Below, one piece after another: positions 12,459 to 54,332 of a stretch of 64,000 nt of DNA. The DNA is from Escherichia phage vB_Eco_OMNI12, in sequence record OL362041.1; one strand, given 5' to 3'. The stretch's first letter is position 1. Each line of letters begins with the position of its first letter. The translations under genes and the position numbers were made by a program. Under the pieces are notes generated by a model. It made no database searches. It was not told the origin of the DNA and worked only from the letters and a program-made list of their open reading frames with translations.

Positions 12459-14227
12459 AAAAGCCACAAGAAATGCAAACGATGCGTAGAAAAGTTATTT
12501 CAGATAATAAACCAACACAGGAAGCGGCTAAATCCGCTTCCAATACTTTATCTGGACTTAATGACATTTCTACAAAATTGGATGATGCTCAAGCTGCTTC
12601 TGAATTAATAGCTCAAACCGTTGAAGAAAAATCGAATGAAATAATTGGAGCAATTGACAATGTAGAAAGCGCAGTGAGTGATACTACTGCTGGTTCTGAG
12701 TTAATTGCTGAAACTGTCGAAATTGGCAATAATATTAATAAAGAAATCGGTGAATCGCTCGGAAGTAAATTAGATAAATTAACGAGTTTACTCGAGCAAA
12801 AAATCCAGACAGCCGGAATTCAACAAACAGGAACTAGTTTAGCTACGGTTGAAAGCGCTATTCCTGTTAAAGTTGTTGAGGACGATACAGCTGAATCCGT
12901 GGGTCCTTTATTACCAGCTCCTGAAGCAGTTAATAATGATCCTGACGCTGATTTTTTCCCTGCCCCTCAACCAGTTGAACCTAAGCGAGAGTCACCGGAA
13001 GAAAAACAGAAAAAAGAAGCATTTAATTTAAAATTATCTCAAGCTTTAGATAAATTAACAAAGACTGTTGATTTTGGATTTAAAAAATCCATTTCAATTA
13101 CTGATAAAATATCAAGCATGCTATTTAAGTATACTGTCAGTGCTGCTATTGAAGCTGCTAAAATGGTTGCATTAATAATGGCTGTTGTTATTGGAATAGA
13201 CCTACTGATGGTTCATTTTAAATATTGGTCAGATAAATTTTCAAAAGCCTGGGATTTGTTTAGCACTGATTTTAAAACTTTTTCAAGCGAAACCGGAACT
13301 TGGGGTCCTTTATTACAGAGCATCTTTGAATCTATTGATGAAATTAAAAAGTTCTGGGAAGCGGGAGATTGGGGCGGTTTGACGGTAGCTATTGTAGAAG
13401 GGCTTGGAAAGGTTCTTTATAATTTAGGAGAACTTATTCAGCTTGGAATGGCTAAATTATCAGCAGCAATTCTTCGAGTTATTCCTGGTATGAAAGATAC
13501 TGCTGACGAAGTAGAAGGAAGAGCACTGGAAAATTTCCAAAATTCTACTGGAGCATCTCTCAATAAAGAAGACCAGGAAAAAGTTGCGAATTATCAAGAT
13601 AAACGAATGAATGGAGACCTTGGTCCGATAGCAGAAGGACTAGACAAAATTGCGAACTGGAAAACTCGTGCATCTAACTGGATTCGTGGTGTTGATAATA
13701 AAGAAGCATTGACAACTGATGAAGAACGCGCAGCAGAAGAAGAAAAATTAAAGCAGCTTTCACCAGAAGAAAGAAAAAATGCTTTAATGAAGGCTAATGA
13801 AGCCCGTGCCGCGATGATTCGTTTTGAAAAATATGCTGATTCAGCTGATATGAGTAAAGACTCAACGGTTAAATCAGTTGAAGCTGCCTATGAAGACCTT
13901 AAAAAACGAATGGATGACCCGGATTTAAATAATTCACCGGCAGTTAAAAAAGAACTTGCTGCTAGATTTTCTAAAATTGATGCTACTTATCAAGAGCTCA
14001 AGAAAAATCAGCCTAATGCCAAACCTCAAACTTCTGCTAAATCGCCAGAAGCAAAACAAGTCCAGGTAATAGAAAAGAACAAAGCACAGCAAGCTCCTAT
14101 TCAACAAGCATCTCCTTCAATCAATAATACTAATAATGTTATTAAGAAAAATACTGTCGTTCATAATATGACACCCGTAACGAGCACGACTGCTCCTGGT
14201 GTATTTGATGCGACTGGAGTTAATTAA
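12455..14227 (+). CDS. gp29: Baseplate hub / tail length determinant gp29
   Basis: 590 aa, coiled-coil-rich. Confidence 0.85.
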   Translation: MKKPQEMQTMRRKVISDNKPTQEAAKSASNTLSGLNDISTKLDDAQAASELIAQTVEEKSNEIIGAIDNVESAVSDTTAGSELIAETVEIGNNINKEIGESLGSKLDKLTSLLEQKIQTAGIQQTGTSLATVESAIPVKVVEDDTAESVGPLLPAPEAVNNDPDADFFPAPQPVEPKRESPEEKQKKEAFNLKLSQALDKLTKTVDFGFKKSISITDKISSMLFKYTVSAAIEAAKMVALIMAVVIGIDLLMVHFKYWSDKFSKAWDLFSTDFKTFSSETGTWGPLLQSIFESIDEIKKFWEAGDWGGLTVAIVEGLGKVLYNLGELIQLGMAKLSAAILRVIPGMKDTADEVEGRALENFQNSTGASLNKEDQEKVANYQDKRMNGDLGPIAEGLDKIANWKTRASNWIRGVDNKEALTTDEERAAEEEKLKQLSPEERKNALMKANEARAAMIRFEKYADSADMSKDSTVKSVEAAYEDLKKRMDDPDLNNSPAVKKELAARFSKIDATYQELKKNQPNAKPQTSAKSPEAKQVQVIEKNKAQQAPIQQASPSINNTNNVIKKNTVVHNMTPVTSTTAPGVFDATGVN

Positions 14228-14235
14228 GGAATAAT

Positions 14236-15330
14236 ATGGCAATTGTTAAAGAAATAACTGCTGATTTAATTAAAAAGTCCGGTGAGAAAATTTCAGCCGG
14301 ACAGAGTACTAAATCAGAAGTAGCAACTAAAACATACACTGCCCAGTTTCCAACTGGGCGTGCTAGTGGTAATGACACTACAGGGGACTTCCAGGTAACA
14401 GATCTATATAAGAATGGATTATTATTTACTGCATACAATATGTCATCTAGGGATTCTGGAAGTCTTAGAACGATGAGATCTAACTACTCTTCTTCATCTT
14501 CGAGTATTTTACGTACAGCCAGAAACACTATCAGTAATACAGTATCAAAACTATCAAATGGACTAATATCAGATAATAATTCAGGAACAATAAGTAAAGT
14601 TCCTGTTGCAAATATTCTTTTACCTAGATCTAAATCTGACGTCGATACGTCATCACATAGATTTAATGATGTTCAAGATAGTCTTATTACAAAAGGTGGA
14701 GGTACTGCTACTGGTGTGCTAAGCAATATGGCTTCAACCGCAGTATTTGGAGCGCTGGAAAGTATAACACAAGGTATAATGGCTGATAATAATGAACAGA
14801 TTTATACGACAGCCAGAAGCATGTACGGCGGTGCTGAAAATAGAACTAAAGTGTTCACTTGGGATTTGACTCCGCGCTCAACAGAAGATTTAATGGCTAT
14901 TATTAATATCTATCAGTATTTTAACTATTTTTCTTACGGTGAAACTGGTAAATCTCAATATGCTGCTGAAATAAAAGGATATCTAGATGAGTGGTACCGT
15001 TCTACTTTTATTGAGCCGTTAACTCCAGAAGATGCAGTTAAAAATAAGACGTTATTTGAGAAAATGACATCGAGTTTAACTAACGTTCTTGTAGTTTCAA
15101 ACCCGACAATTTGGATGGTGAAAAACTTTGGTGCAACATCTAAGTTTGATGGAAAAACGGAAATATTCGGTCCATGTCAAATCCAGAGTATCAGATTTGA
15201 TAAAACACCTAATGGTAACTTTAACGGATTAGCTATTGCTCCAAATCTCCCTAGTACATTTACTCTCGAGATTACTATGAGAGAAATTATCACGTTAAAC
15301 CGTGCTTCTTTATATGCGGGGACTTTTTAA
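14236..15330 (+). CDS. gp48: Baseplate tail-tube junction protein gp48
   Basis: 364 aa. Confidence 0.85.
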   Translation: MAIVKEITADLIKKSGEKISAGQSTKSEVATKTYTAQFPTGRASGNDTTGDFQVTDLYKNGLLFTAYNMSSRDSGSLRTMRSNYSSSSSSILRTARNTISNTVSKLSNGLISDNNSGTISKVPVANILLPRSKSDVDTSSHRFNDVQDSLITKGGGTATGVLSNMASTAVFGALESITQGIMADNNEQIYTTARSMYGGAENRTKVFTWDLTPRSTEDLMAIINIYQYFNYFSYGETGKSQYAAEIKGYLDEWYRSTFIEPLTPEDAVKNKTLFEKMTSSLTNVLVVSNPTIWMVKNFGATSKFDGKTEIFGPCQIQSIRFDKTPNGNFNGLAIAPNLPSTFTLEITMREIITLNRASLYAGTF

Positions 15331-44816: not shown

Positions 44817-47800
44817 ATGGCCGAGATTAAAAGAAAGTTCAGAGCAGAAGATGGTCTGGACGCAGGTGGCGATAAAATAATCAACGTAGCTTTAGCTGAT
44901 CGTACCGTAGGAACTGACGGTGTTAACGTTGATTACTTAATTCAAGAAAACACAGTTCAGCAATATGATCCAACTCGTGGATATTTAAAAGATTTTGTAA
45001 TCATTTATAATAATCGTTTTTGGGCAGCAACGGATAATATTCCAAAACCTGCTGGAAATTTTAATAGAATTCGTTGGAAAGCATTACGTACTGATGCCGT
45101 ATATACAACCGTATCATCTGGACCATATCAATTAAAATCCGGAGAAGCAATTTCAGTAGATACATCAGTTGGCAATGACATTGAGTTTACTTTACCACCT
45201 TCTCCGCTTGATGGAGAAACCGTAATAATTCAAGATATCGGTGGAAAACCTGGCATAAATCAGGTTAAAATAAATTCTTCAAATCAGAGTATTGTCAATT
45301 TTAGAGGTGAACAAGTACGTTCAGTTTTAATGACTCATCCAAAGTCACAGATGATATTCATTTTTAATAATCGTTTGTGGCAAATGTATGTTGCTGATTA
45401 TAGCAGAGAAGCTGCGATTGTTACTCCATCGACTGCGTATCAAGCACAATCTAATGATTTTATCGTACGTAGATTTACTTCTGCTGCACCAATTAATGTT
45501 AAACTTCCGAGATTTGCTAATCATGGCGATATTATTAATTTCGTCGATTTGGACAAATTAAATCCACTTTATCATACAATTGTTACTACATACGATGAAA
45601 CAACTTCAGTACAAGAAGTTGGAACTCATTCCATTGAAGGTCGTACATCGATTGATGGTTTCTTAATGTATGATGATAATGAAAAATTGTGGAGATTGTT
45701 TGACGGGGATAGTAAAGCACGTTTACGTATTATAACAACTAATTCTAGTATTCGTCCAAATGAAGAAGTTATGGTATTTGGAGCGAATAACGGAACAACC
45801 CAAACAATTGAACTTCAGCTTCCAACTGATATTTCTATTGGTGATACTGTTAAAATTTCCATGAATTACATGAGAAAAGGACAAACAGTTAAAATCAAAG
45901 CTGCTGGTGAAGATAAAATTGCTTCTTCAGTTCAATTGCTGCAATTCCCAAAACGTTCAGAATATCCGCCTGAAGCTGAATGGGTAACAGTTCAAGAATT
46001 AGTTTTTAATGGTGAAACTAATTATGTTCCAGTTTTACAACTTGCTTATATAGAAGATTCTGATGGAAAATACTGGGTTGTACAGCAAAACGTTCCAACT
46101 GTAGAAAGAGTAGACTCTTTAAATGCTTCTACTAGAGCAAGATTAGGCGTAATTGCTTTAGCTACGCAAGCTCAAGCAAATGCTGATTTAGAAAATTCTC
46201 CACAAAAAGAATTGGCAATTACTCCAGAAACGTTAGCTAATCGTACTGCTACAGAAACTCGCAGAGGTATTGCAAGAATAGCAACTACTGCTCAAGTGAA
46301 TCAGAACACCACATTCTCTTTTGCAGATGACCTTATCATCACTCCTAAAAAGCTGAATGAAAGAACTGCTACAGAAACTCGCAGAGGTGTCGCTGAAATT
46401 GCTACGCAGCAGGAAACTAATACAGGTACTGATGATACTACAATCATTACTCCTAAAAAGCTTCAAGCTCGCCAAGGTTCTGAATCATTATCTGGTATTG
46501 TAACTTTTGTATCTACCGCAGGAGCTACTCCAGCTTCTAGTCGTGAATTAAATGGTACGAATGTTTATAATAAAAACACTAATAATTTAGTTGTTTCACC
46601 TAAAGCTTTGGATCAGTATAAAGCTACTCCAACGCAACAAGGCGCAGTAATTTTAGCAGTTGAAAGTGAAGTAATTGCTGGACAAAGCCAAGAAGGATGG
46701 GCAAATGCGGTTGTAACACCAGAAACGTTACATAAAAAGACATCAACTGATGGAAGAATTGGTTTAATTGAAATTGCTACGCAAAGCGAAGTTAATACAG
46801 GAACTGATTATACTCGCGCAGTCACTCCTAAAACTTTAAATGACCGTAGAGCAACTGAAAGTTTAAGTGGTATAGCTGAAATTGCTACACAGGTTGAATT
46901 CGACGCAGGCGTCGACGATACTCGTATCTCTACACCATTAAAAATTAAAACCAGATTTAATAGTACTGATCGTACTTCTGTTGTTGCTCTATCTGGATTA
47001 GTTGAATCAGGAACTCTCTGGGACCATTATACCCTTAATATTCTTGAAGCAAATGAGACACAGCGTGGTACACTTCGTGTAGCTACACAAGTTGAAGCTG
47101 CTGCAGGAACATTAGATAATGTTTTAATAACTCCTAAAAAGCTTTTAGGTACTAAATCTACCGAATCGCAAGAAGGTGTTATTAAAGTTGCAACTCAGTC
47201 TGAAACTGTGACTGGAACGTCAGCAAATACTGCTGTATCTCCAAAAAATTTAAAATGGATTGTACAGAGTGAACCTACTTGGGCAGCTACTACTTTGGTA
47301 AGAGGTTTTGTTAAAACTTCATCTGGTTCAATTACATTCGTTGGTAATGATACGGTAGGTTCAACACAGTCATTAGAATTATATGAGAAAAATAGCTATG
47401 CAGTATCGCCATATGAATTAAACCGCGTATTAGCAAATTATTTGCCGTTAAAAGCAAAAGCTGTAGATAGTAATTTATTAGATGGTCTAGATTCGCTCCA
47501 GTTCATTCGTAGGGACATTGCACAAACAGTTAATGGTTCACTAACCTTAACCCAACAAACGAATCTGAGTGCCCCTCTTGTATCATCTAGTACTGCTACA
47601 TTCGGTGGATCAGTTTCAGCAAATAGTACATTAACTATTTCTAATACTGGAACGGCAACTCGTCTGATTTTTGAGAAAGGACCTCAAACTGGAACAAACC
47701 CAGCTCAAACGATGACAGTCAGAGTGTGGGGAAATCAATTTAGTGGGGAATCAGACACAACACGTTCTACCGTATTTGAAGTTAGTGATGAAACGTCTAG

Positions 47801-48686
47801 TCATTTTTATTCTCAGCGTAATAAAGCTGGAAATATAACATTTAATATCAACGGTACAGTAACACCGATAAATGTTAATGCTTCAGGAACATTGAATGCA
47901 AATGGTGTAGCAACATTTGGTAATTCAGTCACTGCAACTGGTGAAATTATTTCTCGAAGCGCAAATGCTTTCCGTGCTATTAGCGGAAATTATGGTTTCA
48001 TTGTTCGCAATGACGGGTCAGTAACGAATTTTATGCTTACTGCATCGGGTGATCAGACTGGCGGATTTAATGGATTGCGTCCTTTAGCTATTAATAATGC
48101 ATCTGGCCAAGTAACGATTGGTGAAAGCTTAATCATTGCAAAAGGTGCTACTATAAGTTCGGGTGGTTTGACTGTTAACTCGAGAATTCGTTCTCAGGGT
48201 ACTAAAACCTCTGATTTATATACCCGTGCGCCAACATCTGATACAGTAGGATTCTGGTCAATCGATATTAATGATTCAGCCACTTATAACCAGTTCCCGG
48301 GTTATTTTAAAATGGTTGAAAAAACTAATGAAGTGACTGGACTTCCATACTTAGAACGTGGTGAAGAAGTTAAATCTCCTGGTACATTGACTCAGTTTGG
48401 TAACACACTTGATTCACTTTACCAAGATTGGATTACTTATCCAACGACCCCAGAAGCACGTACCACTCGCTGGACACGTACATGGCAGAAAACCAAAAAC
48501 TCTTGGTCAAGTTTTGTTCAGGTATTTGACGGAGGTAACCCTCCTCAACCTTCAGATATAGGAGCGATCCCATCTGATAATGGAATAATAGGTAATCTTA
48601 CTATTCGCGATTTCTTGCGAATTGGTAATGTTCGCATTATTCCTGACCCAGTGAATAAAACTGTTAAATTTGAGTGGATTGAATAA
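44817..48686 (+). CDS. gp34: Long tail fibre proximal subunit gp34
   Basis: 1289 aa with repetitive fibre segments. Confidence 0.9.
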   Translation: MAEIKRKFRAEDGLDAGGDKIINVALADRTVGTDGVNVDYLIQENTVQQYDPTRGYLKDFVIIYNNRFWAATDNIPKPAGNFNRIRWKALRTDAVYTTVSSGPYQLKSGEAISVDTSVGNDIEFTLPPSPLDGETVIIQDIGGKPGINQVKINSSNQSIVNFRGEQVRSVLMTHPKSQMIFIFNNRLWQMYVADYSREAAIVTPSTAYQAQSNDFIVRRFTSAAPINVKLPRFANHGDIINFVDLDKLNPLYHTIVTTYDETTSVQEVGTHSIEGRTSIDGFLMYDDNEKLWRLFDGDSKARLRIITTNSSIRPNEEVMVFGANNGTTQTIELQLPTDISIGDTVKISMNYMRKGQTVKIKAAGEDKIASSVQLLQFPKRSEYPPEAEWVTVQELVFNGETNYVPVLQLAYIEDSDGKYWVVQQNVPTVERVDSLNASTRARLGVIALATQAQANADLENSPQKELAITPETLANRTATETRRGIARIATTAQVNQNTTFSFADDLIITPKKLNERTATETRRGVAEIATQQETNTGTDDTTIITPKKLQARQGSESLSGIVTFVSTAGATPASSRELNGTNVYNKNTNNLVVSPKALDQYKATPTQQGAVILAVESEVIAGQSQEGWANAVVTPETLHKKTSTDGRIGLIEIATQSEVNTGTDYTRAVTPKTLNDRRATESLSGIAEIATQVEFDAGVDDTRISTPLKIKTRFNSTDRTSVVALSGLVESGTLWDHYTLNILEANETQRGTLRVATQVEAAAGTLDNVLITPKKLLGTKSTESQEGVIKVATQSETVTGTSANTAVSPKNLKWIVQSEPTWAATTLVRGFVKTSSGSITFVGNDTVGSTQSLELYEKNSYAVSPYELNRVLANYLPLKAKAVDSNLLDGLDSLQFIRRDIAQTVNGSLTLTQQTNLSAPLVSSSTATFGGSVSANSTLTISNTGTATRLIFEKGPQTGTNPAQTMTVRVWGNQFSGESDTTRSTVFEVSDETSSHFYSQRNKAGNITFNINGTVTPINVNASGTLNANGVATFGNSVTATGEIISRSANAFRAISGNYGFIVRNDGSVTNFMLTASGDQTGGFNGLRPLAINNASGQVTIGESLIIAKGATISSGGLTVNSRIRSQGTKTSDLYTRAPTSDTVGFWSIDINDSATYNQFPGYFKMVEKTNEVTGLPYLERGEEVKSPGTLTQFGNTLDSLYQDWITYPTTPEARTTRWTRTWQKTKNSWSSFVQVFDGGNPPQPSDIGAIPSDNGIIGNLTIRDFLRIGNVRIIPDPVNKTVKFEWIE

Positions 48687-49872: not shown

Positions 49873-50523
49873 ATGGCTGATTTAAAAGTAGGTTCAACTG
49901 TAGGTGGATCTGTCATTTGGCATCAAGGAAATTTTCCATTGAATTCAGCCGGTGACGATGTACTCTACAAATCATTTAAAATATATTCAGAATATAATAA
50001 ACCGCAGGCAGCTGATAACGATTTCGTTTCTAAAGCTAATGGTGGTACTTACGCCGGTCCAATTACTATTAATTACGGGGTAAATAGTTATCTTCAATTA
50101 AGTAATAATGAAACCCCTATCCGAATTCGTTCTGGTGGCGGCACTGGTAATACTCTTGTAGTTGGCGGCTCTTCCGGTGGTATTAGTTTTAGACCTGCAG
50201 GTAGTGAAATCACTACTGGACAAATTACTATTACGCCAGAAGGTTTGACAACATTTACCAGGGCTGTAACGGCTCCATCGGTAACTGTTACATCTACTCC
50301 TTCCGCAGCATCTGATGTTACTCGCAAAGATTATGTTGATGGAGCAATAAATACTGTTACAGCAAATGCAAACTCTAGGGTATTACGCTCTGGAGACACT
50401 ATGACAGGAAATTTAACTGCGCCAAACCTTTTTTCACAGAATCCTGCATCTCAACCTTCACACGTTCCACGATTTGACCAAATCGTAATTAAGGATTCTG
50501 TTCAAGATTTCGGCTATTATTAA
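49873..50523 (+). CDS. gp36: Long tail fibre distal connector gp36
   Basis: 216 aa. Confidence 0.8.
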
Positions 50524-50531
50524 GAGGACTT

Positions 50532-53498
50532 ATGGCTACTTTAAAACAAATACAATTTAAAAGAAGCAAAACTGCAGGAGCACGTCCTGCCGCTTCAGTA
50601 TTAGCCGAAGGTGAATTGGCTATAAACTTAAAAGATAAAACAATTTTCACAAAAGATGACTCAGGTAGTGTTATAGAATTAGGTTTAAAATATGGAGGAA
50701 CTATAAATGGGTCTTTAGAGGTTACAGAAAATATAACTGGAACTTTAATTGGAAATTCTAGCACAGCTACTAAATTGCAAACACCTAGGAAAATTAATGG
50801 TATATCTTTTGATGGGTCAAAGGACATTACCTTAACTCCATCTGACATAAATGTCAATAGCACAACATTTATAAAAAATAATGGCGAATTACCTACTGAT
50901 GCTAATTTAGATACGTATGGGCCCATTGAAGAATATCTTGGTGTTTGGTCGAAATCTACTTCAACAAATGCGCAACCAGCAAATAAATTCCCAGAAGAAA
51001 ATGCCGTAGGTGTACTAGAAGTGTTTGTGGCCGGCCAATTTGCTGGCACTCAGCGTTATACTGTAAGATCTGGTAACGTCTATATTCGTTCCTTATCTGC
51101 TAAATGGAATGGCGTCGATGGTCCATGGGGTGTGTGGCGTAATGTTCAAGCGTCAACTCGTCCACTTTCACAAACGATTGACCTTGATAGCTTGGGAGAA
51201 TTAGAACATTGCGGCTTATGGCGAAACAGTTCAAGCGCAATCGCATCATTTGATCGCCATTATCCAGAAGAAGGATCAGCCGCACAAGGATTTTTAGAAA
51301 TATTTGAAGGTGGTTTATACACGAGAACTCAGCGTTATACTACCCGAATGGGTGTTGTATATGTTCGTTGTCTTGCTGGTGCATGGGATCCAGAAGCTCC
51401 GAATTGGGGACCGTGGCAACAAGTAGGTATGGTTACTCCCAACACATTCTATGACGGGGATCTTAATAATTTTCGTTCTCCTGGCTTATATAATATTTTA
51501 GGCACTGATGCCGTTATTAACCGTCCAGTTGCAGAAGGTGTTCCGGTTGAGATGACCGGATTGCTTGAGGTTAAACAGCGTGCTTCCGGTGCCGCTATTT
51601 TCCAACGTTTCACTACCGCAGGAACGGGTGCAACTACGCGATCTCGCGTGTTTGAACGTGCGATGACAAATAACATCTGGGGAAATTGGTACGAAGTATA
51701 TACGTCCTATTCTATGCCGATCACTCTGGGTATGGGTGGTGTTAAATCTCAATTAGCGGAGCTAGACTGGCAAACCTTTGATTTTGTCCCTGGTAGTATG
51801 TTTAGTGTTCCTTTGAACAAAATAAAGAATATGCCAGCAAATATGGATTGGGGGACGATTGACGGAAACTTGGTTATGTTTTCTGTCGGTCCTAGCGAAC
51901 ATACCGGAACGGGTCGAACTGTTCAAGTGTGGCGCGGTACTGTATCTCAGGCGAACTATCGTTATTTCGTTGTTCGTATCGCTGGTAATCCAGGAAGTAG
52001 GACTAATACTTGTCGTCGTGTTGTTGTGGAAGATGGTCGCCACACATGGACAGCACAGCAAGATTTTAATGGTGCTGTCAACTTTGGTGGTTCGACAACT
52101 TTTAAGTCCACTACAACTTTTAACACAGAAGTTAAATTCCGTTCATCCAATGCATTTAAAATGTATGGCGGTAATTTTGGCACAATTTTCCGTAATGATG
52201 GTGAAAGTCTTTATATTCTTTCCACCGACGAAGATGATCAAGATGGAAACTTTAATACAAATAGACCTTTCCGTTATGAATTAAGAACTGGTGATGTTAC
52301 TTTAGGTGGTACTAGTGGTGCTAACGTTTTAAAATTAAAACGTGATTCTCTCACCGCATTTTTTGGTGGTGATATTAACATGAAAGGCTTGATGACTTTT
52401 GACGCCGGACGTTTAGGATCACGAGATTATTTTAAATTTAACCATTGGGGTGATAGTAATAATGCGCGCGATAACATTATTCAGTTAGAAGACAGCAAAG
52501 GCGTTCATTTTTCCACTGAACGTACTTTAGCGACAGGTGCAATTAAGACTAAATTTTTTGGTGAAATTGAATCCGATGGTAAATTGATTATTAAACGTCC
52601 GGGCGATTCTATTGTATTATCAACAACTGCTAGTAATTCTTTGCATATTCGCGGTGATATAGACGGGACTGGTAACTGGTATATTGGTAAAGGTGGTGCT
52701 GATAATGGATTAGCGTTCTATAGTTATGCTACTAATGCTGGTGTATACATTACAAACGCAGGAGATATCTCGCTAAGTCCAAAGGGTGCCGAAATGGCTC
52801 AGGTCAATAACGTTCGATTATATGTTCATGGTGAACGTTGGACCGCTAGTCAACCAGGTGATTGGGGCAGTCAGTGGCAAGTGGAAGCGCCAATATTCGT
52901 CGATCATGGTTATGTTGGACCAGATAGCTATTATCCAATTATTAAAGGAAGAAGTGTAGTCACCAATCAAGGGTTTGTAACTGCCGTCGATCTTGGTATT
53001 CGTCGTGTCCCTAACAATTGGGGGCAAGCAATTATTCGTGTTGGATCTGCAGAGGCATCGCCAGCGGCTGGACACCCTAACGCGGTATTTGAATTTCATT
53101 ACGACGGTACTTTCTATTCTCCTGGTAATGGTAACTTTAACGATGTGTATATTCGTTCCGATGGTCGTCTTAAGATTAATAAAAAAGAGCTAGAAAACGG
53201 AGCACTTGAAAAAGTATGTCGACTGAAAGTTTATACATACGATAAGGTTAAGTCTATTAAAGATCGTAGTGTTATTAAACGTGAAGTTGGTATTATTGCT
53301 CAGGATCTTGAAAAAGAATTATCAGAAGCTGTATCTAAAGTTGAAGTTGATGGATCTGATGTTCTGACAATTTCTAACTCCGCTGTAAATGCTCTTTTAA
53401 TTAAGGCTATCCAAGAAATGAGCGAAGAAATTAAAGAATTGAAAACGCCTTTCTTCACTAAAATTGCTCGCAAAATTGGTAAATACTTTAAATTCTAA
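50532..53498 (+). CDS. gp37: Long tail fibre distal subunit gp37 with C-terminal intramolecular chaperone domain
   Basis: 988 aa; C-terminal ~113 aa matches the S74-type autoproteolytic chaperone domain (SDGRLK ... [11 protein letters not shown]). Confidence 0.9.
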
Positions 53499-53531
53499 TA
53501 ACAAGGGGCATTGCCCCTTTGGAGATAAATT

Positions 53532-54332
53532 ATGGCAGTAGTTGGTGTTCCTGGTTGGATTGGAAGTTCATCCGTAAATGAAACAGGGCAACGATGGATG
53601 AGTCAAGCGGCTGGTCAATTAAGATTGGGTGTTCCTTGCTGGATGAGTCAATTTGCAGGTCGCTCGCGAGAAATTATTCACACGCTTGGAGCAGACCATA
53701 ACTTCAATGGTCAATGGTTCCGAGATAGATGTTTTGAGGCAGGTAGTGCACCTATAGTGTTTAATATTACAGGTGATTTAGTATCATATTCTAAAGATGT
53801 TCCTTTATTCTTCATGTACGGGGATACGCCTAATGAATATGTTGTTCTTAATATTCATGGCGGTGTTCATATGTGGGGTCGTGGTGGTAATGGTGGATAC
53901 ACTCACTCAGGAGGCGACGGTAACGGTACACAAGGCGGTCATGTTATTCAAAATGATATCGGTGGACGGCTTCGTATTTGGAACTACGGTGTTATAGCTG
54001 CTGGCGGTGGCGGCGGTGGTGGTATTGCATATCGTCCACACTCAGGGGCAAACTGGCAAGATATCGGTGGCGGTGGTGGTCGACCTTTCGGTGCCGCGGG
54101 CGGTGGCGGTTATTCCGGTGGTGCTGCTTCGTATGAAGGTCCGGGTGGTGGTTATGACTATGGTAACGCACACTCCGGCGCAGGTGGTAATGCTGGTGCT
54201 GCTGGTCAGAATGCATGGTCTGACGGCGGTAAAGTTCTTAAAGTTGGTGTTGGTGGTGCGTCTGGTCATGCAGTGTTTGGGTCTTCTCCAACTTGGGGTG
54301 CTGTTGGAACAATTTACGGACCAAGAGTATAA
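53532..54332 (+). CDS. gp38: Tail fibre adhesin gp38, T2-type with glycine-rich motifs
   Basis: 266 aa; poly-Gly blocks separated by short variable segments; conserved N-terminus [13 protein letters not shown]. Confidence 0.8.

Follow-up and report, generated by a model that had tools for sequence, protein, structure and literature searches.

The Peptidase_S74 domain family dates from 2007–2010, and the gp37-gp38 structure of phage S16 is said to date from 2018 (Dunne). In T2 and T6, gp37 is cleaved at its C-terminus and is then capped by gp38 (Trojet 2011, PMC3157838); a passage of the same paper credits the processing of T2 gp37 to Drexler 1986. S74-type domains have been listed for S16, T5, K1F and phi29 (PMC7289586). 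In S16 (6F45), a 113-residue C-terminal chaperone is autocleaved, after which gp38 docks on the exposed gp37 tip through its N-terminal tryptophans (PMC7917993). From comparison with the S16 crystal structure, and with DLNVS^SDRRIKK of S16 aligned to it, DVYIR^SDGRLKI (the caret marking the bond) has been predicted as the autocleavage site in the Tequatrovirus phages fPS-2, -65 and -90, in which cleavage between Arg and Ser would release the chaperone and expose the gp38 docking tip (PMC7917993). In T5 pb1, the S1264A substitution blocks autoproteolysis at the scissile bond Thr1263-Ser1264, and Lys1269 has been proposed to be the activator of the serine (PMC4690869).

The window analysed here is a 64,000-nt stretch of Escherichia phage vB_Eco_OMNI12 (OL362041.1). 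Its open reading frame listing reveals a long tail fibre operon of the T-even type on the + strand, followed by the holin gene:

44817-48686, + strand: g34, 1289 aa
48695-49810, + strand: g35
49873-50523, + strand: g36
50532-53498, + strand: g37, an ORF of 988 aa encoding the distal subunit of the long tail fibre
53532-54332, + strand: g38, 266 aa, starting 33 nt past the gp37 stop codon
54363-55019, + strand: holin gene t

The backbone of the genome is that of a Tequatrovirus, positions 20000-44000 of the window being 98.7% identical to phage vB_EcoM_G4498, and the g37-g38 block finds its best match in Shigella phage Sf21, at 93.8% identity. The stretch from the gp37 stop codon to the gp38 Shine-Dalgarno sequence contains a small hairpin, GGGGC-ATT-GCCCC, which is kept in T6, MX01 and U115; its stability does not exceed that of its shuffles (z=-0.9), and terminator prediction did not report it. 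Over the full 64-kb window, neither the Rfam scan nor the tRNA scan gave a match.

An earlier note on this DNA had proposed that the last ~113 residues of gp37, from SDGRLK onwards, form an S74-type domain, and all of the protein strings that it quoted are found in the gp37 ORF. The assignment holds: the interval starts at the Ser876 codon, and Ser876-Phe988 comprises 113 residues at the extreme C-terminus of the 988-aa protein. The search that the note had suggested, with the profile PF13884 Peptidase_S74 ('chaperone of endosialidase'), aligns gp37 residues 876-934 to positions 1-57 of the 58-position profile, Ser876 occupying the first; the score on the 113-aa segment is E=3.4e-12 and 46.9 bits, well over the curated gathering cutoff of 22 bits, and full-length gp37 gives E=1e-10 and 42.2 bits. 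The same profile scored 60 bits on T2 gp37 (position 1 on Ser1243), 42.1 bits on T6 gp37 (position 1 on Ser882), 39.7 bits on T5 pb1 (position 1 on Ser1264) and 39.3 bits on the K1F endosialidase, where the match begins at profile position 5, four residues past Ser911; the domain studied here therefore scores at least as well as the domains in T6 gp37, T5 pb1 and K1F, and below that in T2 gp37. T4 gp37, the negative control, has no S74 match at E<=0.1 and carries Collar and Phage_fiber domains instead, whereas the Pfam content of the window gp37 is Gp34_trimer and S74 only. Judged by these comparisons, gp37 Ser876-Phe988 very probably (at roughly 0.9) constitutes a C-terminal intramolecular chaperone of the Peptidase_S74 family, set in a T2/T6/S16-type arrangement. 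The parts into which gp37 is divided on this reading are the following:

50532..53156, + strand: predicted mature gp37, residues 1-875, its chain end placed by the S74 cleavage site
53142..53156, + strand: DVYIR, residues 871-875, the last strand before the putative scissile bond and predicted gp38 docking tip
53157..53333, + strand: core Peptidase_S74 match (PF13884), residues 876-934, including GIIAQ
53157-53159, + strand: Ser876 codon TCC, putative nucleophile, with which the released chaperone would begin, at PF13884 profile position 1
53172-53174, + strand: Lys881 codon AAG, which would supply the general base in the Ser-Lys dyad, aligned with T5 K1269 and K1F K916
53334..53444, + strand: rest of the chaperone domain, residues 935-971, a strand pair and a long C-terminal helix expected to be the trimeric coiled-coil segment, aligning with 6F45_A up to ELK
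53445..53495, + strand: 17-residue tail, residues 972-988, past the terminal helix (...EEIKELK, to residue 971) and beyond the usual domain end
53496-53498, + strand: gp37 stop codon TAA

The Ser...Lys dyad spacing, SDxRxK, that the earlier note had recognised is borne out by a MAFFT alignment of the C-termini, in which S876 and K881 share columns with S1243/K1248 of T2, S882/K887 of T6, S1264/K1269 of T5 and S911/K916 of K1F. Four residues are invariant among the window gp37, T2, T6, T5 and K1F in this alignment: the Ser, the Lys and, within GxIAQ, Gly and Gln, the core motif being GIIAQ at gp37 residues 920-924. On the other side of the junction, VYIR is invariant in the gp37 of T6, T2, MX01, U115 and Miller, and the sequence upstream of it is divergent. 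The mature C-terminus of gp37 is accordingly predicted at Arg875 (...DVYIR^SDGRLK), with cleavage in this phage expected from homology; the note had placed this end near residue 875, and the identical junction, together with the same prediction, has been published for the fPS phages (PMC7917993).

Wider searches agree with the family assignment to differing degrees. Against an HMM of close homologues, 120 shuffled C-termini reached nothing better than E=2.3, and a chance motif match was rejected on this ground. An HMM built from the close T-even homologues gave no match to T5 pb1 or K1F endoNF, probably because of the long insertions in T5 and K1F; these two proteins are linked to the domain through the broad Pfam model and through the motif region as aligned by MAFFT. 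The match to S16 gp37 (6F45_A) takes in the junction and the domain in its entirety, at E=3.3e-4 when a single sequence is searched and at 3.3e-7 when a profile is. Weaker structure-database matches of the gp37 C-terminus are to 8jov, another phage tail fibre, and to 7dc3, the MyRF ICA domain, which is the known relative of this domain in eukaryotes. AF2, run on the 113-aa domain as a monomer with a 12-sequence alignment, gave a low-confidence model (mean pLDDT 53.5) in which a helix lies at segment residues 74-92. Foldseek with this model ranks MyRF ICA 7dc3 as the top PDB fold (E=2e-3) and the endoNF chaperone 3gw6 fourth (E=0.2); with such a model and a best Foldseek E of 2e-3, support at the level of the fold is weak. 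When the domain was used for tblastn against the phage collection, 1108 phage records were matched, among them T5-like fibres and hyaluronidases of streptococcal phages; 155 of the records reach >=90% identity, one of which, vB_EcoM_ESCO58, is 100% identical. A search of 5.8 billion proteins gave 17 matches only, all fragmentary close relatives, and went no further than the tblastn.

The product of the neighbouring gene, gp38, is divided into two parts:

53532..53657, + strand: gp38 N-terminal attachment domain, residues 1-42, with Trp9, Trp22 and Trp37 (PF21721 Gp38_N, E=3.2e-19)
53658..54332, + strand: body of the gp38 adhesin, containing glycine-rich motifs as well as hypervariable loops, stop codon included (PF05268 GP38, E=2.1e-68)

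In structure comparisons, gp38 matches 6F45_D (S16 gp38) at E=1.3e-43 and the GFP-gp38 fusion 9v85_A at E=1.5e-65. T4 gp38, a protein of 183 aa, matches neither adhesin family (PF05268, PF21721) and gives only Caudo_TAP, below threshold. Since gp38 here is of the adhesin type and T4 gp38 falls outside both adhesin families, the arrangement follows T2/T6/S16 and departs from T4, as the earlier note had maintained. Both the cleavage of the gp37 tip and its capping by the gp38 adhesin are predicted from the homologues; in S16, docking on the exposed gp37 tip proceeds through the N-terminal tryptophans of gp38 (PMC7917993).

The gene order g37-g38-t, which is as in T4, and the Tequatrovirus backbone would both suit a T4-like arrangement, with the receptor-binding tip on gp37 itself and gp38 acting only as a non-structural assembly chaperone. 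Such an arrangement borders on the untenable, as the window gp37 is without the Collar and Phage_fiber domains that T4 gp37 possesses, and the gp38 encoded here resembles S16 gp38 and falls into the adhesin families, where its T4 counterpart belongs to neither family. The T4-type arrangement was rejected on the T4 controls, gp37 having no S74 domain and gp38 no adhesin-family match. It is also very improbable that the domain is a degenerate S74 relic which no longer cleaves and would either remain part of the virion fibre or be cut away by another protease. This reading can draw on the alignment, in which no obvious counterpart of the T5 'folding-sensor' Arg1250 is identifiable upstream of Ser876; however, the Ser, the Lys and GxIAQ are all preserved without change even in divergent T-even relatives, and the profile score is on par with those of proven self-cleaving domains. 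Processing of gp37 is moreover known for T2 and T6 (PMC3157838), and the docking of gp38 requires an exposed tip (PMC7917993).

A genuine self-cleaving domain may not be sufficient by itself. Trimerisation might also need gp57A, and possibly gp38, in which case the fibre's 'own chaperone' would be one part of a longer pathway; this is a serious prospect, with a chance somewhat short of even. Expression of the S16 fibre reportedly made use of gp57A co-expression. In T4, gp57A is required for the folding of gp34, gp37 and gp12 (PMC7289586), but fragments of T5 pb1 and of the K1F endosialidase fold in E. coli with the intramolecular chaperone alone (PMC4690869), and no sign of a dependence on gp57A is seen in the sequence.

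With the C-terminus of gp37 taken as a self-cleaving S74 chaperone, a mechanism can be proposed by homology with the K1F endosialidase, T5 pb1 and S16 gp37. The C-terminal helices of the chaperone would bring three gp37 chains into register, and the chaperone would in this way template how the distal fibre tip folds. After the tip has folded correctly, Ser876 would attack the Arg875-Ser876 bond, with Lys881 as its activator, and the chaperone trimer would then be released. The flat tip exposed in this way, made of three DVYIR strands, would be capped by the tryptophan-bearing attachment domain of gp38, whose glycine-rich domain would bear the receptor-binding loops.

The S74 chaperone model leaves the 17-residue tail unexplained; these residues lie within the interval of the earlier note, which passed over them. 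The tail has a net charge of +5 and is amphipathic, with a helical hydrophobic moment of 0.67 vs 0.29+/-0.15 in shuffles. It is common to T6, MX01 (genus Dhakavirus) and U115, and absent in T2, Miller, S16, T5 and K1F. At the DNA level, the tail is near-identical across T6, MX01 and U115 (13-15 of the 17 codons identical), and its conservation may therefore simply reflect recent recombination at the g37/g38 junction. That the tail gives the released chaperone trimer a second activity, for example transient membrane association, hand-over of the freshly cleaved tip to gp38 or the timing of release, is a speculative idea with little likelihood; alternatively, it may be a passive appendage that travels with the g37/g38 junction, a site prone to recombination.

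The feature itself is already known and is ordinary for phages of the T2/T6 type, the prior record reaching from the processing of T2 gp37 in 1986 to the discussion of an identical DVYIR^SDGRLKI junction in 2021. It matters little beyond correct annotation of the fibre as the T6 subtype of the T2/T6/S16 architecture, in which host range would be set by the gp38 loops and not by the gp37 tip. For practical work, recombinant fibre or adhesin constructs should either end gp37 at Arg875 or retain the chaperone domain for folding, and swaps of gp38 would require a matched pair of gp37 tip and Gp38_N.

Among the known systems with which the locus is compared, T5 pb1 (4UW8) and K1F (3GW6) have the Pfam family in common with gp37, align with it at the catalytic Ser and at the Lys, which again stands at +5, and likewise carry the domain at the C-terminus of a trimeric fibre or spike, where it ends in a helix. 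Their identity to the domain studied here is only 16-17%, and they contain long 'tentacle' insertions of which there are none here; their cleaved tips bind the receptor directly, without a separate adhesin cap. S16 has the same order of events, as described above; however, its junction reads DLNVS^SDRRIKK vs DVYIR^SDGRLKI here, the upstream sequence is unrelated, and its terminal helix is without the cationic tail. T2 (AP018813) has the junction NVYIR^SDIRLK and combines its 60-bit S74 domain with a gp38 adhesin downstream, yet identity is 44% over the last 140 residues and 43% for gp38, and the domain that it releases has 99 residues vs 113 here and no tail. In the Yersinia Tequatrovirus phages fPS-2, -65 and -90, DVYIR^SDGRLKI is identical, and the likeness lies in this junction (PMC7917993). 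The nearest system is T6 (AP018814), with g34-g35-g36-g37-g38-t in the same order and a gp38 whose first ~120 residues are almost identical (identical over the attachment domain). The differences from T6 are scattered substitutions in the gp37 shaft and a diverged glycine-rich, hypervariable half of gp38, which has 64% identity overall with indels; receptor specificity may consequently differ. As gp37 is 89% identical to that of T6 from end to end, with SDxRLK, the chaperone domain in its entirety and the cationic tail all shared, the fibre is assigned to the T6 subtype.

The distal long tail fibre subunit (gp37), its C-terminal Peptidase_S74 chaperone domain and the downstream adhesin gene (gp38) carry the following features:

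52104-52274 (gp37, +): Gp34_trimer (Pfam) match, residues 525-581, E=4.3e-13
53445-53495 (gp37, +): cationic amphipathic tail of 17 residues, after the terminal helix of the chaperone
53503-53524: hairpin AAGGGGC-ATT-GCCCCTT, placed directly between the stop codon of gp37 and the Shine-Dalgarno sequence of gp38
53521-53524: gp38 Shine-Dalgarno sequence GGAG
53892-54329 (gp38, +): glycine-rich, hypervariable half, strongly divergent from T6 gp38

Gp34_trimer is a module common to proximal and distal fibre subunits; T4 gp37 also matches it, but more weakly and below the cutoff. Self-cleaving chaperone domains of this kind are homologous between phages and eukaryotes, and it is this known relationship that is reflected when the gp37 domain (53157-53495) matches the ICA domain of human myelin regulatory factor (PDB 7dc3), in a sequence-profile search (E=0.028) and as the top match of a fold search with a low-confidence AF2 model.

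The tail that ends gp37 has a charge of +5 and a hydrophobic moment within the top 1% of shuffles. T6, MX01 and U115 have it too, in contrast to T2, Miller, S16, T5 and K1F, which do not; as the DNA encoding it is likewise highly conserved, selection and recombination are inseparable here. The hairpin is also kept in T6, MX01 and U115 with small changes in the loop; its stability shows no excess over shuffled sequence (z=-0.9), and it received no terminator call.

In Citrobacter phage Miller (KM236237), gp37 with an S74 domain is followed by a 174-aa protein (1523-2047 of the L008 record) annotated as a 'T4 gp38-like distal long tail fiber assembly catalyst'. Given this position and a sole domain match to the Gp38_N attachment domain (E=5.6e-22), the protein appears, from its sequence, to be a short tip-binding protein as in T2 and T6 rather than a T4-type chaperone, and its annotation is therefore probably wrong. 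The T6 gp38 CDS as deposited (AP018814; L003 record, 13711-14508) begins 4 codons ahead of the position (MAVVGVPGW...) that lines up with the starts of gp38 in the window, in T2 and in other phages; this annotated start is also probably incorrect.

T6 gp38 is near-identical to that of the window over the first ~120 residues, whereas the glycine-rich, hypervariable half diverges strongly, with indels and different loops; on this T6-type fibre tip, receptor specificity may thus differ from that of T6.
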